64,000 nucleotides of DNA, from the NCBI GenBank assembly GCA_032718475.1, contig JAUCBJ010008427.1, positions 1-64,000 of the forward strand, written 5' to 3'. Below, one piece after another: positions 3,783-49,580 of this stretch. The position numbers and the translations under genes are program-made. The DNA comes from Nemertoderma westbladi (taxonomy: Eukaryota > Animalia > Xenacoelomorpha). Numbering within the stretch: position 1 is the stretch's first letter; every line of letters starts with the position of its first letter. The notes beneath the pieces were generated by a model. That model had not been told where the DNA came from, ran no database searches, and worked only from the letters and a program-made list of their open reading frames with translations.

Positions 3783-3873
3783 AAACTTTATTATATTAAG
3801 TCTAGGTTACCTTAACAACAAACTAAGAATTACGATATTCTATGTAAACAAATTCAAATAAGAATAATAAAAA

Positions 3874-3918
3874 ATAGATTTGATAAAGGCTATGCAATAT
3901 AGCCGAAATATCATCTGT
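3874..3918 (+). ncRNA. minimal type I hammerhead ribozyme (U3-A8 variant) in the PLE pseudo-LTR
   Basis: Stem I ATAGAT/ATCTGT, core TTGATAA, stem II GGCTAT-gcaat-ATAGCC, then GAAA-TATC with a palindromic stem III and an AUC cleavage triplet. Confidence 0.75.
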
Positions 3919-4076
3919 AGAATAAAAACATCACTTTTCTTAAATACAAACAGTGGCATTTATTTCATTTGTCTTCATAATTACTAAATTTACAAATGCT
4001 GGGCAGTGCATATTATTCATATGTTATAAATATTATCTTCATTTATACACTGTTCCCTTTGAAGCTGTTTTGTATT

Positions 4077-7000: not shown

Positions 7001-7799
7001 GACTCAAGGTAACGTGTACAAGAACCACCTAATTAAGTGTGGACATAATGCAGATCATGTAAATACAGTCTTTGAAGAAGTTAGGAACATGCAAAGATCG
7101 GAAGCAAGAAATTATAAAGGAAAAAACAAAAGTATTAAAAATCCAACAGTTTTAGTAACAACGTATAACCCAATGGCTCCAAACTTTAAAAGACTTATCA
7201 ATAAACATTATGGTATATTAGAGTCAAACGAAATGGCAAGGAAAATACTACCACGAAACAAAATAATTGTTGCATATAAAAGAAACCCAAACCTAAAAGA
7301 ACTTCTAGCACCATCCAATCCATACAAACAATTATCATGCATTGATAATCCTGGTTGTTACAATTGTAGCGCTAAAAAGTGTGACTGTTGTGAAAATTAC
7401 TTAATTGAAACCAACCATTTCAAATGTGTAGCTACAGGCAAGACTTTTAAAATAAACAAACGATTAAACTGTTACTCAGAAAATGTAGTATATTTAGCTA
7501 TCTGCATAGAATGCAATTTACAGGGTGTTGGCTCAACAATCAATTTCAAGAAGAGGCTTGGAAATTATAAATCTCATATAAAAAAAGGTGTGAAAAGTTG
7601 CAATATCGGCGTGCATTTCATCAAAAAACACAACAAATCCTCCAAAAACTTGAAATTTATTTTGATTGATCAATTACCAAGAAGGGACAACTGTGTAGAA
7701 ACAATAAAGAAACTAAGAAAATCAGAACGATTTTGTATTGGTATGCTGCTCACTAATCTAAAGGGCTTGAACTCCTTCCATGACTACATTCAACAATAA
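4077..7799 (+). pseudogene. PLE polyprotein: N-terminal domain, SIM-like repeats, Ulp1/C48 protease, RT, GIY-YIG
   Basis: ORFs 3996, 4545, 5670 and 6585 share one frame. In-frame stops at 5649-5651 (TAG) and 6561-6563 (TGA), and compensating frameshifts near 4295 and 4440. Protease motifs WLTDNIV, NHWVL, YLDS, QFNSYQCG. RT motifs DKG, FDIINMFPSI, GTAMG, YRDD. Confidence 0.88.
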
Positions 7800-7890
7800 A
7801 AACTTTATTATATTAAGTCTAGGTTACCTTAACAACAAACTAAGAATTACGATATTCTATGTAAACAAATTCAAATAAGAATAATAAAAA

Positions 7891-7935
7891 ATAGATTTGA
7901 TAAAGGCTATGCAATATAGCCGAAATATCATCTGT
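7891..7935 (+). ncRNA. second copy of the minimal hammerhead ribozyme
   Basis: Identical to 3874-3918. Confidence 0.75.
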
Positions 7936-8238
7936 AGAATAAAAACATCACTTTTCTTAAATACAAACAGTAGCATTTATTTCATTTGTCTTCATAATTA
8001 CTAAATTTACAAATGCTGGGCAGTGCATATTATTCATATGTTATATATAAGTTAAAATATATATATGATAAATTTATGACTTTTAATTTTGAAATCACAA
8101 TTCTTCCAATTACACTATAAGAGTGTTTCTAGAAACATACTTGTTTGTTACATGTTTCGAAGCGTTACAAAAACAATGTTTTAATAAAATTTTGCTGCAC
8201 ATAGTTCGTGCATCAATTGTCCAAAATTGTTTCTGGGG

Positions 8239-10188
8239 TTAGAGAAGTGAATTCTCATTTTCCAACGTTTGTAATGTTTCTCCTGTTACACCATCTATTC
8301 CAACAGTTCTGAATGTGTATGGTATCAGCATCAGTGGATGATTAGTCTTGAATGTTCCCGTGACCAAATAGGAGCTTATATGTTGACAATTGAGTTTTGC
8401 AAGGTTGTACATGATAGGCTGTCCTGCGATTCTGCAAGCAAATAAGAAAATGATTGTGAACCTACGGATTAATGGAGCGGTCTGGGTTTGTCTAATGTGG
8501 GATTAGAACCTAATCGATTCACCGAGTCACCAGCCAATGAGTGTGCCCAAAAATTTAAAAAACAGAGTATTGGATCGATTTGATGTTGGAGACAGAAATG
8601 TTGAAAACCGAAAAGCGAAAAGCTTTCAGTGGTGATTCAGAAATGAAATGAAATCATTTTGGAAAGTAGAAATATTCTTTCTGAATTTTCAGAAAGAAGT
8701 TTTCTCTCAGATGAGAGCAATATTTGGGTTTCCCAGTTTATAAATAATACACATTGAACTCGCTCTTATCGTGTGCACAAGTTTCAGAGTACCCGTGGTA
8801 AGATGCTGCTACAACATTCAGTCTACAGAACCAACCAGAACAGAGAAGCTAGGAATTTACTTTTTTTGCAAATTAAAATTGTTACAAAGCATGGTACTAC
8901 TACACCTTGTGCACACCCCTAGCTAATTTTTTTGAACTTGACAATACATCTTGCTTGGTTATTTAATAATGTTCTAGAACATAAATGGAATTATTTTTTG
9001 AAACAAAACATGTTCTAGAACATAATTTTCATGTTCTAGAACGTAACTGAGAATAGCTATTATTTTTCAACATTTTTAACAAATTGTTATATAATCAATT
9101 TACCAGACTGACATATGAATATTATTACGTCCAGTTTTATTTTAAATCACTTTCTGTTGTTTTAAATGCTCGAGAACATTATACTAGAGTAATTGGTTGA
9201 TAATGAGTTGTAATTAACAAGTTCAGAAATACTAGCTAGGAACATAAGTAACGTTCTAGAACATAAAATTATGTTGTAGAATATAATTTATATAAACAAA
9301 ATAATTCAAATGATGGTCTAGAACAATAATTGATCGCAAAATGTGGTGAAACAGCAAGTGTAAAAAATTTAGCTTGGGGTGTACACAAGGTGTAGTAGTA
9401 CCCAAAGCATTAGGTTCAAATCCCACATTAGGCAAACTCGGACTGCTCCTTTATTTCTAAAGGTGGCTCAATAAAAACACTATATATAACAAACTATAAA
9501 TCTTTTGCTACTCAATTCTTACCTCGAAAATCTGTACAGAACTTTTCCAATTGGGACCCCTTTGGAATTCAGATATGCATTGTCCACCCAAAACTTCGGG
9601 GTACGTGTCTGAGTGAAGCTTGATGACACGAATGGGCCGTGAGAATTGGGGGTGGGCCAATTATTTCTTCTAATATAATGTGTCTTCATGGTTTGCGGAT
9701 TGGCCACGCAGAAGAATTCTGGTGTGCTGGTATGGAATGATGGAGTGAGCAATCCGAGAAAATTAAATTTTGGAGCCCGTTAGATCGTTTTTGACATCCG
9801 ATATGTCGTATTTTGCCATAGATTTTCCTGGTACCACAGATTCTGATTGTGAAAGTTTGTACTTTAGTTTAATGTTAAAGAGGACCTTTTTGTGGTCTGG
9901 TGTGGGATTCACATCCGCACCGTGGATCTCATATCCACGTCTCACATTCTTGAAAGTTTCACTGATGACCTCTGATAGTATTCGTTTCACATTTCTAATT
10001 GTAATGTTCAATCCGACAAAGTACCGAAATGGTAGGTTTTCGTCCATGAAACTGTCCAAAGAAAGCGCCTCATTTTGGAGGCAATCAAGATACGGCGTGT
10101 ATAAAAGTTTCACTAAAATTTGTATGCTTTCTTTAACAGAGTTACAGAAATGTTGAACGGTCTTCTGTTTTTTTCTTGGAGGTTCCAT
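8239..10188 (-). pseudogene. unknown two-exon gene X of element Y (about 285 aa, N-terminal NLS-like PPRKKQK), copy A
   Basis: Exon 1 is 10188-9523 with donor GAG|GTAAG. Intron is 9522-8432 with acceptor TTGCAG|. Exon 2 is 8431-8239 and continues in frame (FSR-IAGQPIMY...ENSLL*). This copy has a premature stop at 9763 and a frameshift near 9680. Confidence 0.7.
8893..9402. mobile_element. MITE with 8-bp TSD (Merlin-like) in the intron of gene X
   Basis: TIR GGTACTACTACACCTTGTG(C/T)ACACCCC at both ends. TSD CAAAGCAT at 8885-8892 and 9403-9410. Confidence 0.8.
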
Positions 10189-10831
10189 TTCCACAGAAAT
10201 CACAAGTGAGTTTTCATAACGGAACTGTCGAGAAAGACATACATATGAAGTATGAGTGGTAATAAACGTTGAATCAAACAATTTTGACAGGAACTAAAGT
10301 TCTCGAATTGAGTAATTCTTTTGAAATGTAATACTGTTGTCTTGACAACAATTTTGCCTAGTGCACAGCCTTGCAATACAATACAGCCAAGTAGCTCTAT
10401 ATACTGTAGTGGAAACTGAACGGATTGTCAATTTTTTTCAATACCAATTAGAGTCAAGCTTTTTTAGCTGCACAAATGTATCAATTTTCATATTTAAGTA
10501 TAAACTCTCTTGTTACAACATGGTAAAATTAATCTAATTAAACCATTTGAATTCCGTTTGAACATTGCTAGATATCAATCATGTTGGAATTTGGTAATGT
10601 TAGAGGTATGGGAAATCCCAAAATAATTATAAAGAATGACGAAAAACAGCGTAAATATTGCAATTCATATCGTGGTAGTCAAGACACCCGCAAAAATAAT
10701 ATAAAGCTACTCTAAATATATAGAGCTACTGTACTTGATACAGCAATACTATACAATCCAAAACTCCAAAACAAAACAGAAGACAGTTTAAAATTTCTGT
10801 AACTCTGTTGAAGAAAGCGTACATCATTTAG

Positions 10832-11099
10832 ATTAGTTAGCTCAGTCAGCAAGGCGTCAACTATTGATATTTGGAGTGATTGTTTCGCGATGGCCGGTTC
10901 GCCCCCCCCCCCCCCCCCCCCTCTAATCCAAGCTGTGCTCCCTCCTCACCAGGCCATATCCGATTTATCAGGTGCTAGTGGATATCGGTGGTGAAGTGGT
11001 GGTATATTCCCCACGTGGTCGCTTATATACATAGGTCGCTTGCAGTAGTGGAGTGGAGTGTATACCATCAAGTCATCATTGGGTAGCGCTATAAAGCTC
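10832..11099 (+). mobile_element. tRNA-derived SINE (also at about 35075-35330 + and 39694-39952 -)
   Basis: A-box TAGCTCAGTCAG, B-box GGTTCG(A/C)CCC, and a 3' end GCGCTATAAA resembling L2-type tails. Present in all three Y copies. Confidence 0.6.
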
Positions 11100-12150
11100 T
11101 AAAGGGTGTGACAAAAAAAACAATCATTTTAAAATGGTCCATAAAAAATTTCTGTTGTGAGGTAGAACATCAAATTTTGGCACACATATTCCAAATTGGT
11201 TCTATTTTCACAAAATATGCATAATTTTATCCAAAATTTAGTGTAAATGCCAATGTCCCACATAGATTGGCGCCCAACGGTGTCCATGTGAGGTGTATAG
11301 AACAATAATACACGTCCGAGTTAATTCCATAATAAACATTATAATTGTAACAGACAATTTTACCGTACACAATAGGGTACATGCCTATGTCTAAACATTT
11401 GCAATAAATCATACGATTATACATAAACATTTGCAATAAATCATACGATTATACATAACAGGGTATCCTAAGACTTGTAGCCGAGTCATTTTGTAAAAAT
11501 TCATCCTGTAAATGGTATAAATCGGCCCTTAAATCTCGCCATTTAGCAAATCGCTCTGTGAGTATGAATGTATTTTAACGTCACAAGGTTGTTTCTGATT
11601 GTGCTGGTATATTTATTTCCCTCCTACACAATGCTGCTGGGGCTGCCTTCCCTTCCCAGTTATAACAGATGTTGAGATCGGTTATATAAAAGTTTTGTAA
11701 ACATTTTCTAGGAACTAGCATCCCACTGTTGCTATGGAAACCTCATCTGAAGTAATTCTTCATACCACCTGTAACTTGAGATTACTTTACTATATCGACT
11801 GGTTCTGGTGTGTGTGGGTTGGGGTTGCCCACTGCTCTTTTATATACGAGTAGGATTGCCGTATGATGTCTCGTTGCTATGGTAACATACATATTCGAAA
11901 AGTTAGATTTTGTTCTCCAGCCAGAGTGCACTGGACAATTTTTGCTCTCAACTCTGTCACGTTGGCGTTGGGTATTGCGAATGGCGATATTTTACCAAAG
12001 TTTCACCGATGTACCTAGATGGTTGCTATGGTATCACTAAGCAAACCTGAATGAGGGCTCCAATTGGATTCCAAATTGGGCTCCAATTATAATTTGTTTT
12101 CATTAATTATTTTAAATAATTGACAAATAGCTTATTCATCTCACTCACTC

Positions 12151-13805
12151 ATGGATCTAACAACCAACGAAAATGAGATCTCAGTATCCGACAATTCATT
12201 TGGGTTTTATTTCGACTCCTCCAACCAAAAGTTCCCACTCACTGTCAACACCTTTCGTAATCATCCTACTCGCATCCCTTCTCATTATGCTCATTTTATA
12301 ATGAGGGCCTGCTATCAGTTGGAAGACGGGGTTGGAAGACGAAACATTATACTGCCCAACAAATGATTGCCTCAAAGTGCAAAAGTCACAAGATATTGTA
12401 TCTTTCAATATTCCCACCATCAGAAACTTTTACAATTCCATCTTCTGTTTTTACCTTCATTCGTGACAACCTTAATCATGAAAGTTTTGAAAAAATATTG
12501 GGACCATCATCGTTGAAAGCTACATTTTCTGCTGATAACTCACTCTTCGATTTTCATGCAACTACAAAATCAATGTTTCTTCTAATTTGGAATTATAAAC
12601 CAACAATTAATCCAGAGAACAATCAAGAATGTAGGATATTCAAATTATTCGATATGGATATTATTACTTTGTGGGAGAAAATGAGTGAGCTAATTTGTAT
12701 ATATGACAAAAAAACCGAGTTACATTTTGGTTTTAATTTTAAAGTTGCTCAGTCATCAAACACTCAACCATCTACCTATACTGAAATTGTCAACCTTACA
12801 GATACCATCAATGGAGGGTGGCTACCTATCTCAGCTACAGCTATCGCTCTTCTTCAACACTATCTCGAAGTCTGTTGTCCATTCATCAACACACAAATAC
12901 ACTTTATTCTTCATCCTGGCAATTATGTTTCCTTCGATAGTTCAACATTTGGCTATATTACAAATCTTCAAAAAGAAAGGAATATTGCCATTGCCTCAGG
13001 AGTAGAAGTCGATGCTGGTAAAGCCATAATCTCACTACATGATTCGATATTACTAATCCCAGAAGAAGTAAACAAATTAACATTTGATGCAGATGAAGCA
13101 GATGAATTTGATGAATTAAGTGAGAAACGATTAATCTCTGAAAGAATTCAACTTCACTTTATGATGCTTTCGAATACTGTTGAAATCAGTGATAGGCTCT
13201 TGCATACTGCCTTCACTTTTGACAATGATGATCGAGCAACGGAAGCTTTGATACAACTACAAAATATGCTTCATGATGTTGCTACTTCAAAGGAAATAAC
13301 TCTTCCCAATCATCAATGCGTGGAATTGAGCAAATCACTAACGAGTTTCATTTACACCTTCAAGGGGACAAACTACGTTGGAATCTGGCCATACAAACAA
13401 AAAGATAATAAATTTAAAACAATATTGTTTACAAGTGGGATGAATATCAAATCAGATTTTTTCAAAAAGTTTCATGTAATGCGACAATCACCACCTCATC
13501 CTCAATGTTGCATTGCACCACATATTCATGTTCGTTATGCAAATGGCGAAACAATATTAACCAATTTGAAGTCCCACAACCAAGTTTTGCTTTCAGCAAA
13601 TTTTGGAGTTGAGCATTGCATCAATTTCCTCAAACAAAAATTAGACAACGCGGTTTATCTTCCCAACCAACATCATTTGAATCTGTTTCATCCTACTTCC
13701 CTCTCAACACCACCAAAAATGTCCAACATTTCTAAAGAAATGTATAAAAGAAAATTACCTACCATATGTCATAAAGACGAAAAGAAAATGAAACTAGATG
13801 ATTAA
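12151..13805 (+). CDS. Polinton accessory protein with a PC4/p15-like ssDNA-binding segment (probably one gene with a frameshift near 12363)
   Basis: The segment IYTFKGTNYVGIWPY...SGMNIKSDFFKKF resembles the PC4 pattern FkG..yvdIR.y...GIsL. The rest is unrecognised. The C-terminus is basic. Confidence 0.5.
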
Positions 13806-33163: not shown

Positions 33164-33761
33164 TGAAGCTGTATAATATTATAGTTGTTTATGTCTGCAT
33201 CCCAAAAAACTTGATGTCTTTCAGAGTTAGGGCTCGATATGGGCTGTCATAGGCTCAACCTTCTGTGTAGAGTAGACCTACTATATCGTTCGATTGATCG
33301 TTACTATATAATCTCTGACAAATATATTTACTTTTGGGGAAATATTAATAGTTACTTTCAGTATAATAATAGTTTAGTTGTATATTTTAGTTGCTAAGAG
33401 ATATGTAAATGGATGAGATGCCAAATTGCTTGAGTTAATGTTTAATATTAAAGTTGAGAATGAATTGCCAAGAATTTGTATACCCGGTAGTGATCATAGC
33501 TGCTATGGTGAAGAATAAGAATATATTTGTCAAACCAAAAATTAGAGTCAATAATTAATAATTAATCATACCTCGTAAACAATGTACTAATGACACTCTT
33601 CATTGTGTGTCTCTAAAGTGTGAAATGAATTAAGCATAAATAAAAGATTAGTCGCGATTTGTGTATGAGATAAAGGATTAATGAGCAATATAATTGCAAT
33701 TAACACTTTGAACACTAGGCTTAATTACGTAGGTGTTGTTTGGTATAAGAATGGGTGTGAT

Positions 33762-33900
33762 TGATTAAGGATTAACATCTACAACAATAGGATTAACACA
33801 TACAACAATAAGATTAACACTCTAGGTGTGAGTGATTAAGAGATTAACACCTACAACAATAGAATTAACACCTGCAACAATAGGATTAACACTCTAGGTG
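33762..33900. repeat. subterminal ~21-bp repeats (GGATTAACACNTACAACAATA-like, about 6 copies) of the Polinton end
   Basis: Visible array about 65 bp inside the ACTACT terminus. Confidence 0.8.
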
Positions 33901-33966
33901 TTTTTGGCACGAAAAAGGTGCGAGTGAGGTCTAAACTGTCGCCATATCCTGGTCCTCTATACTACT

Positions 33967-36200
33967 TATGGGCTGTGAGAATTGGGGGTGGGCCAATTAT
34001 TTGTTCTAATATAATGTCTTCATGGTTTGCGGATTGGCCACGCAGAAGAATTCCCGTGTGCTGGTATGGAATGATGGAGTGAGCGATCCGGGAAAATGAA
34101 ATTTTGGAGCCCGTTATAAAGTTTTTGACATCCGATATGTCGTATTTTGCCATAGATTTTCCTGGTACCACAGATTCTGATTGTGAAAGTTTGTACTTTA
34201 GTTTGATGTTAAAGAGGACCTTTTTGTGGTCCGGTGTGGGATTCACATCCGCACCGTGGATCTCAAATCCACGTCTCACATTCTTGAAAGTTTCACTGAT
34301 GACCTCTGATAGTATTCGTTTCACATTTCTAATTGTAATGTTCAATCCGACAAAGTACCGAAACGGTAGGTTTTCGTCCATGAAACTGTCCAAAGAAAGC
34401 GCCTCAACTTGGAGGCAATCGAGATACGGCGTGTATGAAAGTTTCACTAAAATTTGTATGCTTTCTTTAACAGAGTTACAGAAATGTTGAACGGTCTTCT
34501 GTTTTTTTCTTGGAGGTTCCATTTCCACACAAATCACGTGTGAGTTTTCATAACGGAACTGTCGAGAAAGACAAACATATGAAGTATGAGTGGTAATAAA
34601 CGTTGAATCAAACAATTTTGACAGGAACTAAAGTTCTCGAATTGAGTAATTCTTTTGAAATATAATACATAATAGTAATATATAATAGAGTCAAGCTTTT
34701 TTAGCTGCACAAATATATCAATTTTCATATATAAGTATAAACTCTCTTGTTACAACATGATAAAATTAATCTAATTAAACCATTTGAATTCCGTTTGAAC
34801 ATTGCTAGATATCATGTTGGAGTTTGGTAATGTTAGAGGTATGGCAAATCCCAAAATAATTATAAAGAATGACGAAAAACAGCGTAAATATTGCAATTCA
34901 TATCGTAGTAGTCGAGACACCCGCAAAAAGCTTGACTCTAATCAGTTTCCACTACAGTATATATAGAGCTACTGTACTTGATACAGCAATACTATACAAT
35001 CCAAAACTCCAAAACAAAACAGAAGACAGTTTAAAATTTCTGTAACTCTGTTGAAGAAAGCGTACATCATTTAGATTAGTTAGCTCAGTCAGCAAGGCGT
35101 CAACTATTGATATTTGGAGTGATTGTTTCGCGATGGCCGGTTCGACCCCCCCTCTATTCCAAGCTGTGCTCCCTCCTCACCAGGCCGTATCCGATATATC
35201 GGGTGCTAGTGGGTATCGGTGGTGAAGTGGTGGTATATTCCCCACGTGGTCGCTTATATACATAGGTCGCTTGCAGTAGTTGAGTGGAGTGTATACCATC
35301 AAGTCATCATTGGGTAGCACTATAAAGCTCTAAAGGGTGTGACAAAAAAAACAATCATTTTAAAATGGTCCATAAAAAAATTATGTTGTGAGGTAGAACC
35401 TCAAATTTTGGCACACATATTCCAAATTGGTTCTATTTTCACAAAATATGCGTAATTTTATCCAAAATTTAGAGTAAACGCCAATGTCCCACATAGATTG
35501 GCGCCCAACGGTGTCCATGTGAGGTGTATAGAACAATAATACACGTCCGAGTTAATTCCATAATAAACATTATAATTGTAACAGACAATTTTACCGTACA
35601 CAATAGGGTACATGCCTATGTCTAAACATTTGCAATAAATCATATGATTATACATAACAGGGTATCCAGCCAAGTCATTTTGTAAAAATTCGTAAATGGT
35701 ATAAATCGGCCCTTAAATCTCGCCATTTAGCAAATCTCTCTGTGAGTGGCTGATTGTATTTTAATGTCACAAGGTTGTTTCTGATTGTGCCGGTATATTT
35801 ATTTCCCTCCTACACAATGCTGCTGGGGCTGCCTTCCCTTCCCGGTTATAACAGATGTTGAGATCGGTTATATAAAAGTTTTGTAAACATTTTCTAGGAA
35901 CTAGCATCCCACTGTTGCTATGGAAACCTCATCTGAAGTAATTCTTCATACCACCTGTAACTTGAGATTACTTTACTATGGGTTGGGGTTGCCCACTGTT
36001 CTTTTATAGGATTGCCGTATGACGTCTCGTTGCTATGGTAACAGACATATTCGAAAAGTTAGATTTTGTTCTCCAGCCAGAGTGCACTGGACAATTTTTG
36101 CTCTCAACTCTGTCACTAGTTGTGTATTGCTACTGGCGATATTTTACCAAAGTTTCACCGATGTACCTAGATGGTTGCTATGTTATCACTAAGCAAACCT
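33967..36200 (-). repeat. partial copy B of element Y; gene X exon 1 (ATG at 34522) is cut by the Polinton insertion
   Basis: Direct match to about 9631-12048 and inverted match to 38794-41057. Confidence 0.9.
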
Positions 36201-36498
36201 TATATTTGTTTGTATATTTGTATGTTTTCTATAAGTTTCCGTTTTCCAATAAATGAGCGCACCAACTACCCCCAGGTTAAAATTTACTCCTTACCAGACT
36301 GACATATTTCTGAAAACTACCCCAAAATTTCAACTACTTTTTCAGAATAAGAAGGGCGATAATCGGTAGGTTGTATGAGATTATCAGCAATAATTACGCT
36401 TTGAATATGACCAAATTAATTCTGGAGAAGACAAAGGTGTCACAACTTCAAGGGTGTTTTGCCAGCCACCCCTTCGTCCCTTTCCAGGCTGGCAAATA

Positions 36499-39400
36499 AA
36501 GGGTGTGACAAAAAAACCAATCATTCTAAAGAAAAGCCAGCTAAATGTGACCATAAATAGAAACCTTCGAATTTTTTGTTCTGCATAGGAAGATTTGCTC
36601 AATTACTCCTAATCTAGCATGTTTTCGTAACTGCTATTACCGATTTTTGAAAATTATTGACAACGTGCGCTAAGGTATATACAGGGGGTCAGCTTTGGAA
36701 CATATGATATACTGGTGTAGCTACATTGTGGCGGAATTTCCAAACATGAGTTACATGGCCGAAATATTCATGAAAGTTGTATATATTTTATGTCCGAATA
36801 GGCTCCATAGGGTTACTTTCGGATTGGATCATGTATGGACCAACCATGACCAATAAATCCGTATTCATTTTTTGGTGAAATTTTCGACAAAATTGGCAAA
36901 AATTCTAAAAATCTGATTTTGAAGGAATCACTTTGTATCTCTGTTCAAACTAAATGAACGCGATGATCCCCCCGGCCGCGTGTGGGGTCGTGACGGGTCG
37001 CTCTGCGGCTGTAGCAAGGGGCACCGGAGGACCTCCGAATTGGCGAGCAATCACTCACGGTGGGCTTAGAGCTGGTAGCTAGCACGTCGGGTTTGCACTC
37101 GGCTGAAGTCCGACAGGGTCGGATGGATATCTGGAACAGTACGACCTAATAATTCCCTACAGGGTACACCAATATCCAACTATCATACACCCACACACCC
37201 ACACACCCTCAATCATACAGTAGGTATTCGCACGGTTGCCACCGTGGAAACAAACGCTCGGTAGGATAGCCTATCAGCTACTGTGTCGGGCACAGACCTA
37301 CAGTAGGCATCTGCCTACGCCCGGTATAGGCGGAGGACAGTCCAGGTCGCAAACCAATGAGTAGTGGCGGGCGCAACAGTAAGACTGGGACTTACAAACT
37401 CCACCGAACTGGGTTCGGAAAATGACTAACGATAGACTTTTAGCATCCAATCACAAAACGTCTCGATTGATTGGACTTCGCCGCAGACACCTCCATGGCG
37501 ACGCTGGGCTGGTTTTGTCCCCATTATCTGAAGAGTTGCACCGATAATGTGTAAAGTAGACTATTATTCTGGCTGCCAAACTGCTTGTAACACCAATATA
37601 TCACTGGTAATAAGTGAGACTGGTAGATATACGATACCGTGAAATACTAGAGAATGATATTAAATGCTGTAAAATGCTGGAACTGTTGGTAGATAAGATA
37701 TAAGTTACTGACAGAATGGAAATGTTGGAAATGGTATCTAATTATTGGTTTCACTCAGCCAATTACTAACTACTGCCCGCTCACTCTGTGCACTCAATTG
37801 ATATACCAAATCAGCTAGCCATGTTGGTCTGGATCATCCCTGGATATACTTAAACCGGCCAATGAGAATTGGTTATCATATATCGAGCTGTGTCATGGCT
37901 AAGCTGAGGGTATCACTGAGTGCCCATCACAAGTCAAGCGAGGTAGCAGTTAGATGAATCATGAATGGGCAGAGGTGAATCTCTCTGTAGCACAAGCGAG
38001 ACAAGGGTATCACAGGCTACTTACTATTAGTACCCAACCGAATTGTAAACAACCTACAACTAAGCAGTCGGACAGCAGCCCCACATGGTAAATGACTAGA
38101 ATTATAGTAGATAAGGAACTAATAATGATAGCAATAGGGTATATGCCTATGTCTGAACATTTCGAATAAATCATCTGATTATACATAACAGGGCATCCTA
38201 AGACCGTGACGTGGTCATTTTGTAAAAATTCCCTGAGGAAATAGGGTAAATCAGGGTCCAAACATGGACATTTTCCAGCTGCTCTGTTAGTGGATGATTG
38301 TATTGTGACGTCACAGGGTTATTACCGATTGTAACAGGTAGTATTATTTCCTACCTACACAATGGTTCCTGGGCTGCTAGTGCTGAGAGTTTATTTTGTA
38401 TGTTACATAATAGTAATAAAAACATTTTTGGAAATATTTAGAGAAACTGGCACCTGCCATTGCTATGGAAACAGCGTCAGAAGTTATTTATTCAACCACC
38501 TATAACTCGGGAATACAGTATTGTATCAACTTGTCATTGCAAGTATGAGTTTGTGTTACCAACTACAGTAACATATCTCAGTATATCTATCTTCTGTGTC
38601 CCCGTTGCTATGGTGACAGATGTAACGCGAAATTAAACATTTCGCTTATAGACAGGTAACGTTAGCGAATTTTCAAACGATGACGATTGGAATAGTTGCA
38701 TACCATAGTTGTGAGAAATTTCTTACAGTACCATAAACTGAGCCGAGAATCCTGATCCACAGTGAACAGAGTATCCAATTGGAGCCTTCATTCAGGTTTG
38801 CTTAGTGATACCATAGCAACCATCTAGGTACATCGGTGAAACTTTGGTAAAATATCGCCAGTAGCAATACCCAACTAGTGACAGAGTTGAGAGCAAAAAT
38901 TGTCCGGTGCACTCTGGCTGGAGAACAAAATCTAACTTTTCGAATATGTCTGTTACCATAGCAACGAGACGTCATATGGCAATCCTACTCGTATATAAAA
39001 GAGCAGTGGGCAACCCCAACCCACACACACCAGAACCAGTCGATATAGTAAAGTAATCTCAAGTTACAGGTGGTATGAAGAATTACCATAGCAACAGTGG
39101 GATGCTAGTTCCTAGAAAATGTTTACAAAACTTTTATATAACCGATCTCAACATCTGTTATAACCGGGAAGGGAAGGCAGCCCCAGCAGCATTGTGTAGG
39201 AGGGAAATAAATATACCGGCACAATCAGAAACAACCTTGTGACATTAAAATACAATCAGCCACTCACAGAGCGATTTGCTAAATGGCGAGATTTAAGGGC
39301 CGATTTATACCATTTACAGGATGAATTTTTACAAAATGACTCGGCCACAAGTCTTAGGATACCCTGTTATGTATAATCATATGATTTATTGCAAATGTTT

Positions 39401-39691
39401 AGACATAGGCATGTACCCTATTGTGTACGGTAAAATTGTCTGTTACAATTATAATGTTTATTATGGAATTAACTCGGACGTGTATTATTGTTCTATACAC
39501 CTCACATGGACACCGTTGGGCGCCAATCTATGTGGGACATTGGCGTTTACACTAAATTTTGGATAAAATTACGCATATTTTGTGAAAATAGAACCAATTT
39601 GGAATATGTGTGCCAAAATTTGAGGTTCTACCTCACAACAGAATTTTTTTATGGACCATTTTAAAATGATTGTTTTTTTTGTCACACCCTT
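36499..39691. mobile_element. non-autonomous TA-flanked (Tc1/mariner-like) element with internal imperfect inverted arms
   Basis: TIR AAGGGTGTGACAAAAAAA(A/C)CAATCATT, TA at 36497-36498 and 39692-39693. About 38130-38640 is a diverged inverted copy of about 38920-39425. Confidence 0.65.
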
Positions 39692-40501
39692 TAGAGCTTT
39701 ATAGTGCTACCCAATGATGACTTGATGGTATACACTCCACTCAACTACTGCAAGCGACCTATGTATATAAGCGACCACGTGGGGAATATACCACCACTTC
39801 ACCACCGATACCCACTAGCACCCGATATATCGGATACGGCCTGGTGAGGAGGGAGCACAGCTTGGAATAGAGGGGGGGTCGAACCGGCCATCGCGAAACA
39901 ATCACTCCAAATATCAATAGTTGACGCCTTGCTGACTGAGCTAACTAATCTAAATGATGTACGCTTTCTTCAACAGAGTTACAGAAATTTTAAACTGTCT
40001 TCTGTTTTGTTTTGGAGTTTTGGATTGTATAGTATTGCTGTATCAAGTACAGTAGCTCTATATATACTGTAGTGGAAACTGATTAGAGTCAAGCTTTTTG
40101 CGGGTGTCTTGACTACTACGATATGAATTGCAATATTTACGCTGTTTTTCGTCATTCTTTATAATTATTTTGGGATTTCCCATACCTCTAACATTACCGA
40201 ACTCCAACATGATATCTAGCAATGTTCAAACGGAATTCAAATGGTTTAATTAGATTAATTTTATCATGTTGTAACAAGAGAGTTTATACTTAAATATGAA
40301 AATTGATATATTTGTGCAGCTAAAAAAGCTTGACTCTATTATATATTACTATTATGTATTATATTTCAAAAGAATTACTCAATTCGAGAACTTTAGTTCC
40401 TGTCAAAATTGTTTGATTCAACGTTTATTACCACTCATACTTCATATGTTTGTCTTTCTCGACAGTTCCGTTATGAAAACTCACACGTGATTTGTGTGGA
40501 A

Positions 40502-43500
40502 ATGGAACCTCCAAGAAAAAAACAGAAGACCGTTCAACATTTCTGTAACTCTGTTAAAGAAAGCATACAAATTTTAGTGAAACTTTCATACACGCAGTAT
40601 CTCGATTGCCTCCAAGTTGAGGCGCTTTCTTTGGACAGTTTCATGGACGAAAACCTACCGTTTCGGTACTTTGTCGGATTGAACATTACAATTAGAAATG
40701 TGAAATGAATACTATCAGAGGTCATCAGTGAAACTTTCAAGAATGTGAGACGTGGATATGAGATCCACGGTGCGGATGTGAATCCCACACCGGACCACAA
40801 AAAGGTCCTCTTTAACATCAAACTAAAGTACAAACTTTCACAATCAGAATCTGTGGTACCAGGAAAATCTATGGCAAAATACGACATATCGGATGTCAAA
40901 AACTATCTAACGGGCTCCAAAATGTCATTTTCCCGGATCGCTCACTCCATCATTCCATACCAGCACACGGGAATTCTTCTGCGTGGCCAATCCGCAAACC
41001 ATGAAGACATTATATTAGAACAAATAATTGGCCCACCCCCAATTCTCACAGCCCATACGTGTCATCAAGCTTCACTGAGACACGTACCCCTGAAGTTTTG
41101 GGTGGACAATGCATATCTGAATTCCAAAGGGGTCCCAATTGGAAAAGTGCTGTACAGATTTATATAAATTATATTCTACAACATAATTTTATGTTCTAGA
41201 ACGTTACTTATGTTCCTAGCTAGTATTTCTGAACTTGTTAATTACAACTCATTATCAACCAATTACTCTAATATAATGTTCTCGAGCATTTAACCCTATT
41301 AAACCCGGGGGGGGAAGGTCAATATGACCCCCCCCCGTGGTTTTTTTATTATAATTCTGAAACAAACGCAGTTGGGAATCTGAAATTTTATGACTTTTCC
41401 TAAAAATCTATTGTCTTCCTAGTAGTGAAAACCGTTTTCTAAAATATTGGGTAGTTTTCGAGTTATAGCACCATTTTTTAACCCTACTTTTGGCACTTTT
41501 TTTTGAGACGTTTTTTGAAAATTACATTTCATTAAATATTAATTGTAACATCTCTATTTTTGATTTACACCGGTTTTTTGGTGTTAGCAATTGGATGGAA
41601 TTCATATAAATTGATTTCGAAATTTCAAACTTGTTTTTTCGGTGGGTGCCAAATTTTGGTGCCAGCACCAAATTTTGAAATATGTCAATTTTGTAAATTG
41701 ATTGTTTGAAACTTGTTTTTTACGCAATTGGGGTTTTTTGGGGTTCTGGATTCGATGAAATATATATGAGTTGCACCAAGCGTATCAAACTCGTATTTTT
41801 CGGTGCTGTGTGCAAATTTTGGTGCTAGCACGAAATTTTGAAAATCCATTCAATAGATAAAATTGCTTGTGACAATTTATTTCTTGCGTTTTAGAGGTTT
41901 ATGGCTGTTCTGAATTCAATGGAATATATAATTTTCGAACTAGACATCTCAAACTTGTATTTTTCGGATGTGGGTGCAAAATGTGGTGCTAGCACCAAAT
42001 TTTGAAAACCATCAAATATGTCAATTGATTGTGTCACCTTGTTTCTTGCGTTATACGGGTTTGTGATGGTTCTGAATTCAATGGAATCAGTAAAAATTTC
42101 ATAAGAGTTCTCAAACTTGTATTTTTCGCCGGTGGGTGAACATTGTTGTGCCAGCACCAAATTTTGGAAAATATGCAAATTGATCAGTAGATAGTATCAC
42201 CTTGTTTCTTGCGTTATACGGGTTTATGAGGGTCCTGAATCCGATGGAATCAATAAAAACAGCACTGGACATCGCAAACTTGTACTTTTTGGTGATGGGT
42301 ACGAAATTTGGTGCTAGCACCAAAATTTGCCAAATTACGCCGAAAAATACAAGTAGCAATGATCTGACATATTAGAAATGTATTCCATTAGAATCAGCGC
42401 CCTCGAAAACCTGAAAATGTGAATTTATAGCATCGTATTGGTGAATTAAAAATTTTGTGTTCTAACTGAAAAGTGCTGGTTACTTGTTTTTTTCATTTTT
42501 TTCCTACGCAGAGAGGACTAAACAGCCATTTATAGTAATCATATCATTTTTAAATATTTTCCAATGTATTTTGCACCCCAGAAAACCTGTATTGAAAAAT
42601 AATTAGCCGAAAATGTAACTTTCAAATTTTGTGAAAATTGTGCACTACTTGTAATTTTGGTGCTACAATATAACCACCCCAGTACATTTTTTCGAAAATG
42701 TTTTTTTCGGTCAGATCCAGACAAGTGATACCTACGTACAAACAAAAAATCAGACGTTTTCGTAAATATTTGTAGATTTTAGAGGGGGGGGGGGGGGTCA
42801 ATATGACCCCCCCCCCCCCCCGGTATTTGTACAACATTTTATAGCCGGGTACTAATAGGGTTAAAACAACAGAAAGTGATTTAAAATAAAACTGGATGTA
42901 ATAATATTCATATGTCAGTCTGGTAAATTGATTATATAACAATTTGTTAAAAATGTTGAAAAATAATAGCTATTCTCAGTGACGTTCTAGAACATGAAAA
43001 TTATGTTCTAGAACATATTTTGATTCAAAAAATAATTCCATTTATGTTCTAGAACATTATTAAATAACCAAGCAAGATGTATTGTCAAGTTCAAAAAAAT
43101 TTGCTAGGGGTGTGCACAAGGTGTAGTAGTACCATGCTTTGTAACAATTTTAATTTGCAAAAAAAGCAAATTCCTAGCTTCTCTGTTCTGGTTGGTTCTG
43201 TAGACTGAATGTTGTAGCAGCATCTTACCACGGGTACTCTGAAACTTGTGCACACGATAAGAGCGAGTTCAATGTGTATTATTTATAAACTGGGAAACCC
43301 AAATATTGCTCTCATCTGAGAGAAAACTTCTTTCTGAAAATTCAGAAAGAATATTTCTACCTTCCAAAATGATTTCATTTCATTTCTGAATCACCACTGA
43401 AAGCTTTTCGCTTTTCGGTTTTCAACATTTCTGTCTCCAACATCAAATCGATCCAATACTCTGTTTTTTAAATTTTTGGGCACACTCATTGGCTGGTGAC

Positions 43501-43787
43501 TCGGTGAATCGATTAGGTTCTAATCCCACATTAGACAAACCCAGACCGCTCCATTAATCCGTAGGTTCACAATCATTTTCTTATTTGCTTGCAGAATCGC
43601 AGGACAGCCTATCATGTACGACCTTGCAAAACTCAATTGTCAACATATAAGCTCCTATTTGGTCACGGGAACATTCAAGACTAATCATCCACTGACGCTG
43701 ATACCATACACATTCAGAACTGTTGGAATAGATGGTGTAACAGGAGAAACATTACAAACGTTGGAAAATGAGAATTCACTTCTCTAA
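40502..43787 (+). pseudogene. gene X of element Y, copy C
   Basis: ATG at 40502, CGA>TGA at 40706, splice donor deleted near 41160. Exon 2 (43595-43787) is intact. Confidence 0.7.
41294..42860. mobile_element. non-autonomous piggyBac-like element with internal ~175-bp degenerate repeats
   Basis: TTAA TSD at 41290-41293 and 42861-42864. CCCTATTA termini. The empty site is seen in copy A near 9162. Confidence 0.88.
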
Positions 43788-44117
43788 CCCCAGAAACAAT
43801 TTTGGTGCACAATCGATGCACGAACTATGTGCAGCAAAATTTTATTAAAACGTTGTTTTTGTAACGCTTCGAAACATGTAACAAACAAGTATGTTTCTAG
43901 AAACACTCTTATAGTGTAATTGGAAGAATTGTGATTTCAAAATTAAAAGTCATAAATTTATCATATATATATTTCAACTTATATATTATATTTTTGAAAG
44001 ACCATCAGGGTGTTCAGATAGGGTTTTATGAGAAGGTATGGGAATCTTTGTTCCGATTGATCTCAAAAGCTGTGAATGATGGTATAGTTCTGAGTATGGT
44101 TTGAGAGCGCACGTTAT

Positions 44118-44643
44118 AGGGGTAGCCAAAAATGCTGCCCCCGAAAATAGGGGGTAGCCAAAAATGGCGCCCCCGAAAATAGGGGGTAGCCTAAAATGCT
44201 GCCCCCAAAAATAGGGGGCCATCAAAAATGGTGCCCCCGAAAATAGGGGGTAGCCAAAAATGGTGCCCCCAAAAATACGGGGTAGCCAAAAATGGTCCCC
44301 CGAAAATAGGGGGTAGCCAAAAATGGCGCCCCCGAAAATAGGGGGTAGCCAAAAATGGTGCCCCCAAAAATAGGGGGTAGCCAAAAATGGTGCCCCCAAA
44401 AATAGGGGGTAGCCAAAAATGGTGCCCCCGAAAATAGGGGGTAGCCAAAAATGGTGCCCCCGAAAATAGGGGGTAGCCAAAAATGCTGCCCCCAAAAATA
44501 GGGGGTAGCCAAAAATGGTCCCCCGAAAATAGGGGGTAGCCAAAAATGGTCCCCCGAAAATAGGGGGTAGCCAAAAATGGTGCCCCCGAAAATAGGGGGT
44601 AGCCAAAAATGGTGCCCCCAAAAATAGGGGGTAGCCAAAAATG
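44118..44643. repeat. 30-32-bp GC-hairpin tandem array (GGGGGTAGCCAAAAATGGTGCCCCCGAAAATA, about 17 copies)
   Basis: Visible directly. Each unit can fold G5...CCA/TGG...C5. Followed by 12-bp (GCYTGAAAGTGT) and TTGATTG-rich repeats up to about 44980. Confidence 0.95.
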
Positions 44644-44995
44644 AAATAAAAAAAAAATCTTATCTCATATGCTTGAAAGTGTGCTTGAAAGTGTGCCTGA
44701 AAGTGTGCCTGAAAGTGTGCCTGTGATTGATTTTGATTGCAGTTTGTTGATTGTTTTTGATTGCTGTTTGAATATTTTGATTTCAGTTTGATCGGTTTTG
44801 ATTGCAGTTTGATTGTTTTTGATTGCAGTTTGATGTAAGGCATGGGTGAGAGGGACACAGACTGAAAGTCTGAATGTATTCCTGGCAGTGCTTCTGTGAT
44901 TGTTTCTGATTGCAGTCTGTTGATTGTTTGTTTTATTTCTGTTTGATTATCTTGATTTCAGTTTGATTGTTTTTGATTTGTGATGCTCCAAAGTG

Positions 44996-47475
44996 TTAGT
45001 TGGTCTCATTGTGTGCTATAGTGACAATTCTATCTTTGTTCTTTTGTGGTGTTGTTTTTGTTCTTCCTACTTTCACTAGCAGTGGAGACAGTACTGTGGA
45101 CAAATCACACTGCATCAGCTCAACTTCTCTCTGCAAGAAATAACCATACACTGGTCTTGCAGATTCACCATCCTTGTTGTGCAAATATAATATATGACGA
45201 CGCACTTTTCCTCTATAGCTCTGGTTCCAGTATGCTATACATTGATATTCACCTTCTTCCAATTCAAGCACTTTTCTCACACTGCTCTTCTCTTTTGCAG
45301 GATATTCAACCAAGCACATGGACTTGGCCTTCTCATATTCACTTTCAACTTTCTTCAATCTTTCTTGAATTTTTTGCTGTTCGCCTTCCATTGGACATGA
45401 CAATAATGTCACTGGATACCAAGTGATTATCTGTTGCTTATCATTTGTGAACTGTTTGGCTGCTTCAATTTCAACTTTTAACTCTGAAGCAACCAAAAAC
45501 CAAATTTCTCGTGTTATTGGTTCTTGTGCTCTGTGAAAAGCATCTCTCAATTCATCCAAAACACACTCCAATCCTCGGTTGGAATATACCTTGAAATTTT
45601 CACCATTAATGGAAAGTAATACCTCATAGCTTTTGTAGGGTCCAACTGCATGTCGGAATCCAAGCACTGCTGCTTACAATGGTTTCACGCCATCCAGCTC
45701 AGAAATTTTGTGTATGGGAGTATGCTTCAGCAGATTCAAAACATATTCTTTGTATTCAGTTTCAAGTTGTTTTCTTTCCTTGAACTCCAGCAACCTTTTG
45801 TGTATCAAGGCTACTTCTTCTTGGTTTCTAGCATTTCTTTGCAGTGCATCTTGTCTCCATTTTTCACATTCTAAATCATCCAGAATATCAATGTTTCTCT
45901 GTGCTCTCTTCCAGGTTGACAACCAAGATACCTGATGTGTTTGCAAGTATTCAGGCACCTCTTGTATTTTCCATTGCTGTTCCCAATGATTTGCATGGCT
46001 CTTGTCTCCATGTCCATTCTATGAAATCTGTTGGTGGCAGCATTTCTTCCAATGGAATTCTTGCTTGAACTGACCTTCACTGTGTTGGTAGTTTCGATGA
46101 GCAAAGTATTGTTTTTGCAGTGGGGTCCTTGAAATAGCATTTCAGAGGTGCTATTTCTGTGCCCTTTTCAATTTCATTTTGATTTCTAATTTGGAAGCAA
46201 AATATAGGACAACCTCGAAATCCAACTTCTGAACAACTCCACAATATAGCTTTCTCCCATCTTTGTCTATTTTCTTGTATATCAAACTTACACTGCACTT
46301 TCACTCCAGAAACTTTCCCAGTTTTTGTGTGAGCATACCAAGCTACATATATTGTTCCTGTGGTCTTAGAGGCGATGACACAACACCTTGTCACCACTTT
46401 TGCTAGAGCTCGCCAGTGATTCCTCCCATTTTGCTGTACAAATAATCCCTCATATGGCTGTATGTTTTCTAATACACTTCTCATCACTTCCACGCCAAGA
46501 TCTCTAGATATGTAATTCATCGAGTACAAGGATATCTCAACTCTTGTACATCCATATTGCTGGATCAATGGATGTTCTAAGGATTTCCGAAGAACAGGGT
46601 TCCTGCAATCAGCATAGTCTGCCAAATGCCCTCCAAAATTCTCCAATACTTCTCCTGCTTCAAACTGGCAAACAATTTTGTTGTACAGCTTCTAACTCAT
46701 TGTATTTCCGCCCCAAGATGTGATGTATGTCAACAGATGATTTCCCACAGACGAAGTGTTTTCCAAAATTGTGGGCTGATCACCCTCCAATGCTGCTTGA
46801 AATGTCCCTTCCAACCTCCAACCTTTTGTTTCCACTAGATGTTTGACTATTGCCTTCCTATCAAGTGTTCCAGCAAAGTCCTTTGTGTAGTCCACAGAGT
46901 ATATTCCCCATCCACATGTCTGCAGTATTCTGCCAAATTCAGCCAAGTGCTCCTGCAGATCATCTAGGTTGATTACAGATACATCCAACTTTGCAACAAA
47001 GACAGCAATAGGTTCTTTTTGTTCCAGGTTTTTCCAGTTTTTGATATTTTTCTCCTTCATCTCTCTTTCAATTTTATGCACTGTTTGCATTATCACTCCA
47101 TGAGATTGTAATGGTACAGAGGCTAATATTTTTGTGTGTATAAAGTCATCACAGTTCTTCCCGATTGTTTGTGTTACCTCCCTCCTCAACTTCTCCACAA
47201 TATACGAGGCAGACCCAAACCTTCCAGTTGTTAACATGACAGAACTTTTGGTTCTCACAACTTGATCTTCTCGAAGATACCCATACACATAAAGATCGTC
47301 AACAAACATTTCCAATTCAGGCACATCTTGAAGCAGCATATTACCTCCATTGCCTGCTAGGTAATCTACTTTTGATATATCAGTCAGAAGATTAGACTAA
47401 CAGTAGATGCATGCAAGCTGACTTTGGAACTCTGAATCCCATCTGTTCAAATGTTACAAACTGTGTAGTATCCAT
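44996..47475 (-). pseudogene. decayed ~820-aa protein with Rep_trans (pT181 RepC-type) rolling-circle initiator-like motifs
   Basis: ORFs 46692 and 46077 are in frame, as are 45674 and 44996, across single stops. Frameshifts near 45965 and 47400-47440. Ordered motifs SVDYTKDF, KLYNK, TRVEISL. Confidence 0.6.
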
Positions 47476-47873
47476 ACTAGTTGGTTTATTTATGTTTTCA
47501 CATATAGTAGTAGCCATAGATATTTTCTATTAGTTTTAATTTCTTAAATAGATAATTTCTTTTACGTAATCTTACTTACAGCAAGACAATAAATATATTG
47601 GACAGAACATTTTGATTGGTGCAACTCTCCTCTGTATGAACTTCTAATCATATTGTGCTCATATAGAGTCAGAACATGTGAACTATTTTCAGAAAATTGG
47701 AATCCATCAATTTGTTAAGCGAAAAATTAGGCGAATATGATAATTTGTGATAAATTGGTGTAAAAAAGTAGTTGAAATTTCGGGGTAGTTTTCAGAAATA
47801 TGTCAGTCTGGTAAGGAGTAAATTTTAACCTGGGGGTAGTTGGTGCGCTCATTTATTGGTTTTCTATACTACT

Positions 47874-48516
47874 TATATGCCCTACTGAGGGCATGGAGTG
47901 TGGGAAGTGCCGTGGCCACATCTTTACCAATAGCTGAGTATGTTGGCCCTATGGATGTTAATCTTAGGTTTGTGTAAGTACCATTAATTAAATTTGTGTT
48001 GCAGCAAGACATGGATATCTTTGCATAGCTAAGATGAATACATCAGTATCCGGTAAACTTATAGTTAGTACAGATGCCCCACAAATTGTTGTATCAACAC
48101 CATGAAGGATTATCTACGTGTCTGCTTATTCTTGTTCGCACTTCAAGTAACTCATATCGCAAAAATTTGACTCAGAGTTTGAACTCCAAGCTACAACAAT
48201 TTTTTTCAGAAGGTGGAATGGTTGTTATAATATTGTAAGATATGAAATTTGTAAGTTCGTTTTATTTCTAGTATCCAATAATAAGGTTTTCATAGATATA
48301 TTCTTTATATTGGTGGTGTTGGTAATGTGACAGTAGACTGGAATAAGTCAACCTCGCCTTATAATCAGCGAGTCAGCTGTCTTATAATCAGCTGTCTTCA
48401 GCGAGTTGTGTACATCATATCATTCGAAGATATGTACTGATGATATGATATATACTGCCTCCATTCACTCATATTTATTTAATATTTGACTTTTAAATAT
48501 GTTTGCCAGTTTGGAG
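47874..48516 (-). pseudogene. Academ-type XPG-like nuclease remnant (inverted homologue of about 61663-62365)
   Basis: Reverse-complement similarity to 61663-62365, with degenerate E.ADT..ILH, DTDVFIL and LPTLHALS motifs. Confidence 0.6.
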
Positions 48517-49580
48517 TACAGTATATTGTGTATTTACATTTTTTTCCATAGATTAGATTTTATTAATAATATCTATGATATATCTGTGATAAATAATTAC
48601 ATTTTACTATCTGTACAGTCAATTTGCCCCGCCTGGGGGCGTACATTATTATATACAATAATAACATCATGGTTGCAATTGCGAGAACAACGTGGCAGAT
48701 GCGATCAAAGTTATGAGAGTTGCAGTCTGGTAGATATTCTTGTGAAATCATTTCATTCGGAGTGACCAACGGATTCTTCCCAGTACTAGTAGTAGTTTGT
48801 TCCGGTTGATCGAGCCGTGATACATAACAGTCAACTAGGTAATTTATCTTTGAACCAGAGACACCCGCCAGGTCCCACTCGTTGAAGGCACACTATTGAG
48901 TGAGTAACAATCACCACGACATGTTGCCCCACAATGGGCGAGCAGGTATCAATGAACATTCTGCAATGTAAATACATTCTTCGGGGTTAACTTGGTAATT
49001 TAGAGGGGCATACCGCAAGGCTTATGCCAGACCACCCATTCCCAAACTGTAACACTCATAGATAGAACTTGACTGTACTTGATGGTACTTGACTTAATTG
49101 TTATCTGTCTTTTGTGATTTCTAGAATGTTTACAGTTGTATATAAAAAAAAGTACATAAAAACAAGCAATTGGCAATTCATATGCAATGCTTGTATAGAA
49201 TCATGCTTTGAATAATGAGGTTAAATATTCTAGAGATCAAGCGTAGTTAGAGTATCGCATCATTCATTCAGATCTGGAAATATCCAATTATTGTAATTTT
49301 ATATAGAGCTGGGTCTTGATTATAATTTTAAATTAGGTATTACAGCATTCTAAATAGCAAGAAGGCCGTGATAAAAACTCAACAAATAACTTATGATCTA
49401 TTCATACACAAAGTCGCATCTGATCGTGCTAAAAATATTAATTTCCTCCGCTCCCATGACAAATTTAGCCTCTTACTTTGATATTTTGTGATTTTATATA
49501 TAATTTAATTATTTACCTAAACACGAAATAGGCTTAGCTGTCTTATATATAGATTATATATATACTATTTACTGAAATGT

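Follow-up and report, generated by a model that had tools for sequence, protein, structure and literature searches.

A candidate non-autonomous element with a Polinton-type end and a predicted nickase gene in Nemertoderma westbladi

We analysed 64,000 nucleotides (nt) of forward-strand DNA from Nemertoderma westbladi (positions 1 to 64,000 of contig JAUCBJ010008427.1; hereafter the window), and in it an element, Y, that an earlier note had proposed to be a Polinton satellite. As described there, two inverted-repeat arms of 97 nt with one mismatch (36246–36342 and 47763–47859) enclose 11.6 kb. The right terminal inverted repeat (TIR; 47763–47873, minus strand) is 111 nt long, has an intact AGTAGT terminus, reading AGTAGTATAGAAAACCAATAAATG at 47873, and forms a clean junction with a flanking repeat. 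AGTAGT, to be looked for at both ends, is missing on the left of this copy, where the repeat (36246–36342, plus strand) lacks its terminal 14 nt. Between Y and an inverted sister fragment lies a filler (36201–36245) that carries, at 36224–36233, an inverted copy of TIR nt 6–15; no such inverted 10-mer occurred in 1415 control pieces of 45 nt. The missing 14 nt and the filler with its inverted TIR piece indicate that the left junction is a repair scar, so that no target duplication is readable for this copy. According to the accessible part of the source, vertebrate Mavericks have (AGT)2 ends, 6-bp duplications and TIRs of 46–1447 bp (PMC8097293), a range that includes the TIR of Y both as paired (97 nt) and at the intact end (111 nt). 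The right end matches the end of a neighbouring Polinton, at 33966, in 19 of 24 nt, the first 11 being identical; past the shared hexamer 13 of 18 nt match (P ~9e-5 at window composition), and over nt 25–40 only 5 of 16, in agreement with the initial likeness and subsequent divergence first reported.

No open reading frame (ORF) for pPolB, integrase, capsid, ATPase or protease was found in 36246–47873, which upholds the view that Y has no polB, integrase or capsid gene of its own. Its two convergent genes, separated by a hairpin array, are also as first described: gene X on the plus strand (40502–41164), the array at 44119–44643, and a Rep-like gene on the minus strand (44999–47457), here also called the nickase gene for its predicted product. 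Both genes are broken in this copy. Gene X, of 221 codons, has one internal stop at codon 69, and the Rep-like gene, for a protein of ~850 amino acids (aa), has a frameshift near 47397, stops at 46692–46694, 46077–46079 and 45674–45676, and a frameshift between 46076 and 45980. The array comprises 16.5 units of 32 nt with one hairpin per unit, and its first 192 nt fold with a z of −5.3, equalled in none of 200 shuffles. For gene X, we found no homologue among 86 candidates (near lengths only) and no Pfam family match; Atlas features reached 0.77 at best, the single-sequence model was unusable (predicted local distance difference test, pLDDT, 34), and IMG/VR gave one weak match among 14 candidates (L039; 49 codons, 32%, E 2e-4).

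Contigs of the same organism were available from seven public runs, with no RNA run listed, four of which were compared with 33300–48600 (X1–X4) and three with 47590–47920 (X1–X3); X1 and X2 derive from one sample and X3 from another study, and X4, which matched in small pieces, was left out at 47590–47920. Contig depth drops at 47873 in X1, X2 and X3, and among the 18 of 51 loose contig ends and 24 of 120 pieces listed, ends with unlike flanks start exactly at 47873 in at least three contigs of X1 and at least two of X2, the row for X3 not being among those listed. Because contigs of the same organism stop exactly there with different flanks, the right end of Y is a real mobile end. Copies of the TIR enter other interiors at 47759 and 47815 and reach the identical terminus; in the deep TIR variants only the outer 59–62 nt are common, with 3–6 differences.

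The interior of Y is unevenly represented in these contigs. Summed depth, which does not equal copy number, was 7.2, 3.4 and 11.0 times higher over the nickase gene than over the region behind gene X in the three runs; scaled to a left arm of 1, it was 2.4–11 behind gene X and 18–47 over the nickase gene, the order left arm < behind gene X < nickase gene holding in 3/3 runs. The constant gene content anticipated for Y was therefore not observed, the nickase gene being 3.4–11 times deeper in every run. The steady unit of the family is the TIR plus the nickase gene, with gene X and the left arm as variable cargo. At the stop 46692–46694, the window and the contigs of other Y copies disagree, and a form of the nickase gene with a 916-nt internal deletion (45191–46108) occurs in X1 and X3. 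Variants connect the sequence upstream of the nickase gene with the TIR, and further contigs link the TIR to the left arm (X1, X3), the arm to the gene X side (X3) and the 3' end of gene X to the array (X2); one contig of X3 runs from the last 30 nt of the left repeat through the arm to 38817.

The left arm (36343–38772) has no long ORF. Covered in X1, X2 and X3 by one or two low-depth contigs per run, it has no close (>=88%) copies there. One of these runs may be the source of the window, though their left-arm contigs differ from it by 18–36 letters. Terminal repeat pairs, tRNAs and Rfam matches at gathering score were sought in it and not found. Part of it and the adjoining sequence (38132–38778) forms an inverted mate, ~70% alike, of 38779–39423 around a palindrome at 38774–38783. 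We assumed this arm to be the site of the mariner-like and short interspersed element (SINE) inserts for which the earlier note gives no coordinates. That note had subtracted four nested inserts to reach a core of about 6 kb; we could confirm one, leaving 10,057 of 11,628 nt, and the mariner-like, SINE and Merlin-like inserts were not recovered as such. The confirmed insert (41294–42860) is non-coding, of very high copy, with 163-nt internal repeats; it has a duplicated TTAA, an empty site in a sister fragment, and a joint 41289–42861 in 3/4 runs, and is presumably piggyBac-like by its target. Separately, old inverted duplications, 68–94% alike, occur within the element family (36497–36530/39660–39693, 38132–39423, 39950–40020/40506–40577, 8893–9402); they are of the kind that repeated fold-back in the course of single-strand copying would produce.

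The middle of Y is repeated, inverted, on both sides of the resident Polinton, an arrangement absent from the earlier note. Sister fragment 1 (33967–36200, minus strand) holds the 5' part of gene X with the region upstream of it and stops in CCCATA at the Polinton terminus, 33966; sister fragment 2 (8043–12069, minus strand) matches 38773–43986, lacks the TTAA-flanked insert, has an extra 231 nt, and adjoins the Polinton's other side. Both contain the region upstream of gene X (38773–40501), and over 38794–41057 substitutions amount to 0.9% against 33967–36200 and 2.6% against 8043–12069. The hexamer 41052–41057 in gene X is the Polinton's site in the sister copy; CCCATA is duplicated (window 33966–33972), and in a single X2 contig, with 30 nt on its short side and placed at 88% likeness, the Polinton's other end is followed by CCCATA and the remainder of gene X (joint 33966–41052). 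The resident Polinton is thus nested in gene X of a sister Y copy with a 6-bp duplication, and this clean integration indicates that helper and element meet. The composite of Polinton and gene X reaches a depth of 482 against 42 for the left arm in X2, and of 58 against 25 in X1, which bears the same sample label.

This Polinton (12070–33966; second end outside the window) is decayed, with pPolB, ATPase, integrase, protease and capsid-like pieces, of which pPolB matched PF03175 and integrase PF00665. It has a 514-codon ORF at 12261–13802, and a reverse-transcriptase element is inserted at ~18.4–23.7 kb. Beyond sister fragment 2 lies another reverse-transcriptase element (2782–8049), with 1.25-kb direct repeats and, upstream, an Ulp1-type protease domain (PF02902, E 9.5e-19); we take this element to be Penelope-like.

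The product of the Rep-like gene belongs to a large family. With a 439-aa query (P0001, X at one stop), we obtained 96 homologues among 4737 candidates of like length and 113 among 3934 longer ones, most of 800–980 aa, none with a precomputed Pfam domain; the named ones come from Elysia crispata, Nematostella vectensis and symbiont bins. A profile search gathered 1074 clusters at 50% identity, one of them from Tetrahymena utriculariae, in which a distant homologue (P0201) is annotated on an 838-kb contig. In many assemblies the gene is present in multiple, scattered copies, often broken. One GTDB match, on a 1.5-kb contig of a symbiont bin, was set aside as likely host DNA. The protein had no PDB sequence match, no PHROG family of note and no homologue among 24 IMG/VR candidates.

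The structural model of the protein (pLDDT 91) has an N-terminal part of 320 aa predicted to be TBP-like, and among 48,161 chains its best fold match was RepSTK1 (4cij; 183–187 aligned residues, root mean square deviation 5.8–6.0). Atlas leads were Rep_trans and Phage_CRI clusters, with template modelling scores of 0.33–0.39 on a poor Atlas model, and the best viral match in Foldseek was an inovirus protein (E 1.9e-4). Across 214 homologues of 500–1100 aa, counting the rows that cover each position and using P0001 numbering, we found D33 in 194/198, D34 in 184/198, D169 in 198/202, Y238 in 208/210, K240 in 207/210, R285 in 207/210 and E287 in 206/210. The residues D33/D34, D169, Y238-x-K240 and R285-x-E287, thus 93–99% conserved, lie on predicted strands in the order N', I, III, IV, a motif assignment that relies on order and conservation rather than on atomic superposition. 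The same order holds for Rep_trans in the accessible part of PMC5714925. In a profile alignment with Phage_CRI, motifs I and III fell in register with a score of 22.6, none of 20 shuffles scoring above 18.5; with Rep_trans, shuffles were not clearly beaten. As to other nickases, the family has one nearly invariant His only where an HUH motif was sought, no helicase family was found in 28 long or distant homologues, and HUH folds did not appear among the fold-search matches listed, which does not exclude their presence. The Rep_trans-like call thus stands as a prediction, with RepSTK1 as best fold, the Atlas clusters and the retained D-D-Y-E residues behind it, and we predict that the protein is a distant TBP-fold tyrosine nickase outside PF02486. 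We found no description of the protein family or of such an element in the literature searched, although Repbase, subscription journals and supplements may hold one; the accessible parts of PMC4028283 and PMC11296320 contain nothing on it.

Among 93 metagenome stretches, 37 encode a Rep-like relative. In three loci (L031–L033) a hairpin with AGTAGT ends lies upstream of the nickase gene, and in two of them (L032 and L033) an inward AGTAGTATAG end lies downstream. The gene of L032 (3995–10679) stands between a 126-nt hairpin with AGTAGTATA ends and the inward AGTAGTATAG end 6.7 kb off; between hairpin and far end, we found neither a TIR match nor a duplication. Downstream cargo varies among relatives. 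A conserved convergent ORF of ~95 codons follows the nickase gene in several lineages (L002:3267–3641, L003:4225–4620, L023:3307–3720, L026:3281–3766 and L032:6821–7420) and is inverted together with the 3' part of that gene in L008 and L018; it matches neither a Pfam family nor gene X, and no gene X homologue was found around the nickase gene in these metagenome contigs. A shared cis motif drawn by eye occurred in sense orientation in 4 of 14 upstream regions and in antisense in as many, and was discarded as circular. In an unbiased test of the same regions at p 0.01, the TIR was matched in 1/14. Terminal patterns had no match in IMG/VR, which is uninformative, the neighbour's pPolB finding no relative there either.

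In one host lineage, nine contigs share a sharp edge ~300 nt upstream of the nickase gene, beyond which they continue into five different sequences: three of the joins fall within a single piece resembling the N terminus of pPolB (E 6e-9 to the window pPolB), one lies in the family's own downstream cargo, and one is unplaced. The pPolB-like piece of L015 (1–737) has three different joins to this edge (L009 type, L011 and L024). The pattern fits a process with one fixed and one variable end, and a tie to Polinton DNA, although short-read contigs can fake such joins. We rejected a terminal-protein fusion, suggested by the in-frame pPolB-like piece and nickase of L009 and L015, as it represents a single join among five and the reading frame is not kept in L011. 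Other than this piece, tblastn of the window ORFs revealed no Polinton core gene in 38 relative loci, and none was fused to the Rep-like protein in 376 proteins. With relatives in other hosts mostly lacking Polinton-type ends, the nickase gene is not by nature satellite cargo.

We give an even chance to the reading that Y is a decayed and rearranged copy of a non-autonomous Polinton-ended element with a predicted nickase, likely borrowing Polinton integrase. What stands of the satellite first envisaged is a repeated, mobile, Polinton-type end, with likeness past the hexamer and no core genes; the constant content and the ~6-kb core do not. The mechanism we propose builds on two observations, an exact terminus that is joined to several flanks, and a TIR and nickase gene that stay while gene X and the left arm come and go as cargo. 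Polinton integrase, and perhaps pPolB, would act in trans on the terminal 24–28 nt that match the resident Polinton. The nickase, predicted to come from a separate and widespread family of eukaryotic mobile elements, would in intact copies cut a single strand and set off copying, by rolling circle or strand displacement, from the TIR side. Such copying would explain the excess of nickase-side copies, the internal deletions and the many inverted duplications. The hairpin array might conceivably serve as a binding or stop signal for the nickase.

Several observations weigh against this reading. For the ends, neither the 6-bp duplication nor a second intact end is readable, the left junction being secondary and the contigs leaving flanks unpaired, and likeness to the neighbouring Polinton stops after ~28 nt, the inner TIRs being unrelated; with so short a terminal match, that Polinton is a candidate helper only. 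Among relatives, an AGTAGT-started TIR pair surrounds the gene in 0/33 loci, most of them of 2–6 kb and maybe short of both ends; the 138-nt TIRs of L002 lack AGTAGT, and L003 and L004 begin at a 166-nt hairpin. The array unit resembles upstream DNA in 1/14 relatives at p 0.01, and contigs show no break at a CT|AA site near 47645, which we had presumed to be a nick motif and have dropped. For the protein, the Z of 6.2 for 4cij ties with TBP and is under the tool's typical background of 7–8, and the best Foldseek match in PDB had E 0.015, with none under E 0.001. The exact RxD and YxKxxE motifs do not occur, motif I being S/C/Q-x-D (position 167 of P0001: C 82, S 66, Q 24, D 13 of 202) and the E of motif III standing at +8. 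PF02486 and PF05144 were matched by 0/80 members among the families listed (25 of 47; best listed E 0.003), and hhalign against 9 Rep_trans and 12 Phage_CRI proteins gave probabilities of 1.2–1.8%.

A different explanation, unlikely but serious, would make Y a transposon of autonomous type that its own tyrosine nickase mobilises, by rolling circle with one fixed end or by TIR cutting, whose AGTAGT end came from a Polinton that hosted an ancestor, so that no helper is needed. Nine contigs with one edge and five different joins, three in the pPolB-like piece and one in the element's own cargo, are as expected of such a fixed-end process; the dispersed, multi-copy, often broken gene and the TIRs of L002 agree with it. 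In Y, however, the edge is the Polinton-type terminus itself, TIR-paired and like the resident Polinton's end, and the relatives are short-read metagenome contigs in which collapsed repeats can make false joins.

It is quite unlikely, in our view, that this TIR is that of another, full-length Polinton family whose accessory arm holds the nickase gene, Y being an internal deletion derivative or one arm. The entry of TIR copies into other interiors and the deep variants that keep their outer 59–62 nt could be read in this way, as could sister fragment 2, which directly adjoins Polinton genes, the second end of that Polinton lying outside the window; tandem and mosaic polinton-type elements occur in anemones, according to the accessible part of bioRxiv 10.64898/2026.10.13.758929. 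Yet the Polinton in the window carries a TIR of its own at each end and sits in gene X with a duplication, and the searches of relatives for fused or neighbouring core genes gave the pPolB-like piece alone. That Y consists of unrelated repeat fragments thrown together by chance between two copies of a short repeat is highly improbable: the left arm without close copies, a depth along Y that varies up to 47-fold and a heavily rearranged region would suit it, but contigs link the TIR to the left arm, the arm to the gene X side, gene X to the array, and the nickase upstream region to the TIR.

Y is a real element, in part as earlier described, with the nickase family the larger prize. We consider it possible, at somewhat less than an even chance, that the nickase marks out a hitherto undescribed class of mobile elements in eukaryotes, ranging across ciliates, molluscs and cnidarians and driven by a rolling-circle enzyme of TBP (non-HUH) fold, and that certain lineages of this class live as parasites of Polintons; Y would then be a hybrid, copied by the nickase and integrated through Polinton-type ends. 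If true, the family would extend the TBP-like nickase fold to eukaryotes and add a transposon class missed by repeat annotation. Ties of the nickase to Polinton DNA in two host lineages make it testable, by genome comparison, whether animal Polintons have parasites of their own. More modestly, Y is a Polinton-type end that travels without Polinton genes.

Among known systems, Polintons (Mavericks) share with Y the AGTAGT terminus, a TIR of ~110 nt, a size near 10 kb and, for the resident copy, a similar terminal sequence. Non-autonomous Polintons are said to have been described by Kapitonov and Jurka in 2006 and in Repbase. Y differs in lacking pPolB, integrase, ATPase, protease and capsid, in an inner TIR unrelated to its neighbour's, and in its predicted nickase, which we did not find among the Polinton genes in the accessible parts of published accounts. 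Transpovirons combine TIRs with a helicase/polymerase or pPolB plus transposase module, as far as the accessible parts of the sources go (PMC5499653; bioRxiv 10.64898/2026.10.13.758929); Y has no helicase, polymerase or transposase gene and is integrated and decayed, but it resembles them in being capsid-less and of linear type, in having TIRs and in its presumed dependence on a larger virus-like element. Helitrons and Replitrons are likewise eukaryotic elements with a tyrosine nickase, and one lineage of relatives recalls them in its fixed edge, variable joins and variable cargo; their enzymes are of the HUH type (accessible part of PMC10288648), whereas the Rep-like family has neither a conserved HUH motif nor a helicase, and Y has TIRs. 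Rep_trans is apparently restricted to bacteria, with an archaeal family added recently (PMC13107129, 2026; accessible part). The Rep-like family departs from Rep_trans and Phage_CRI in its eukaryotic hosts, its length of ~850 aa with a long C-terminal part, its S/C/Q-x-D in place of RxD and the absence of a Pfam match, but shares with Rep_trans (PF02486; pT181 RepC, RepSTK1), Phage_CRI (PF05144) and archaeal Rep-Arvir a predicted TBP-like fold with a D-D-E triad and Y-x-K that follow one another on strands in matching order, and with the Phage_CRI set a G-x-x-R-x-E motif.

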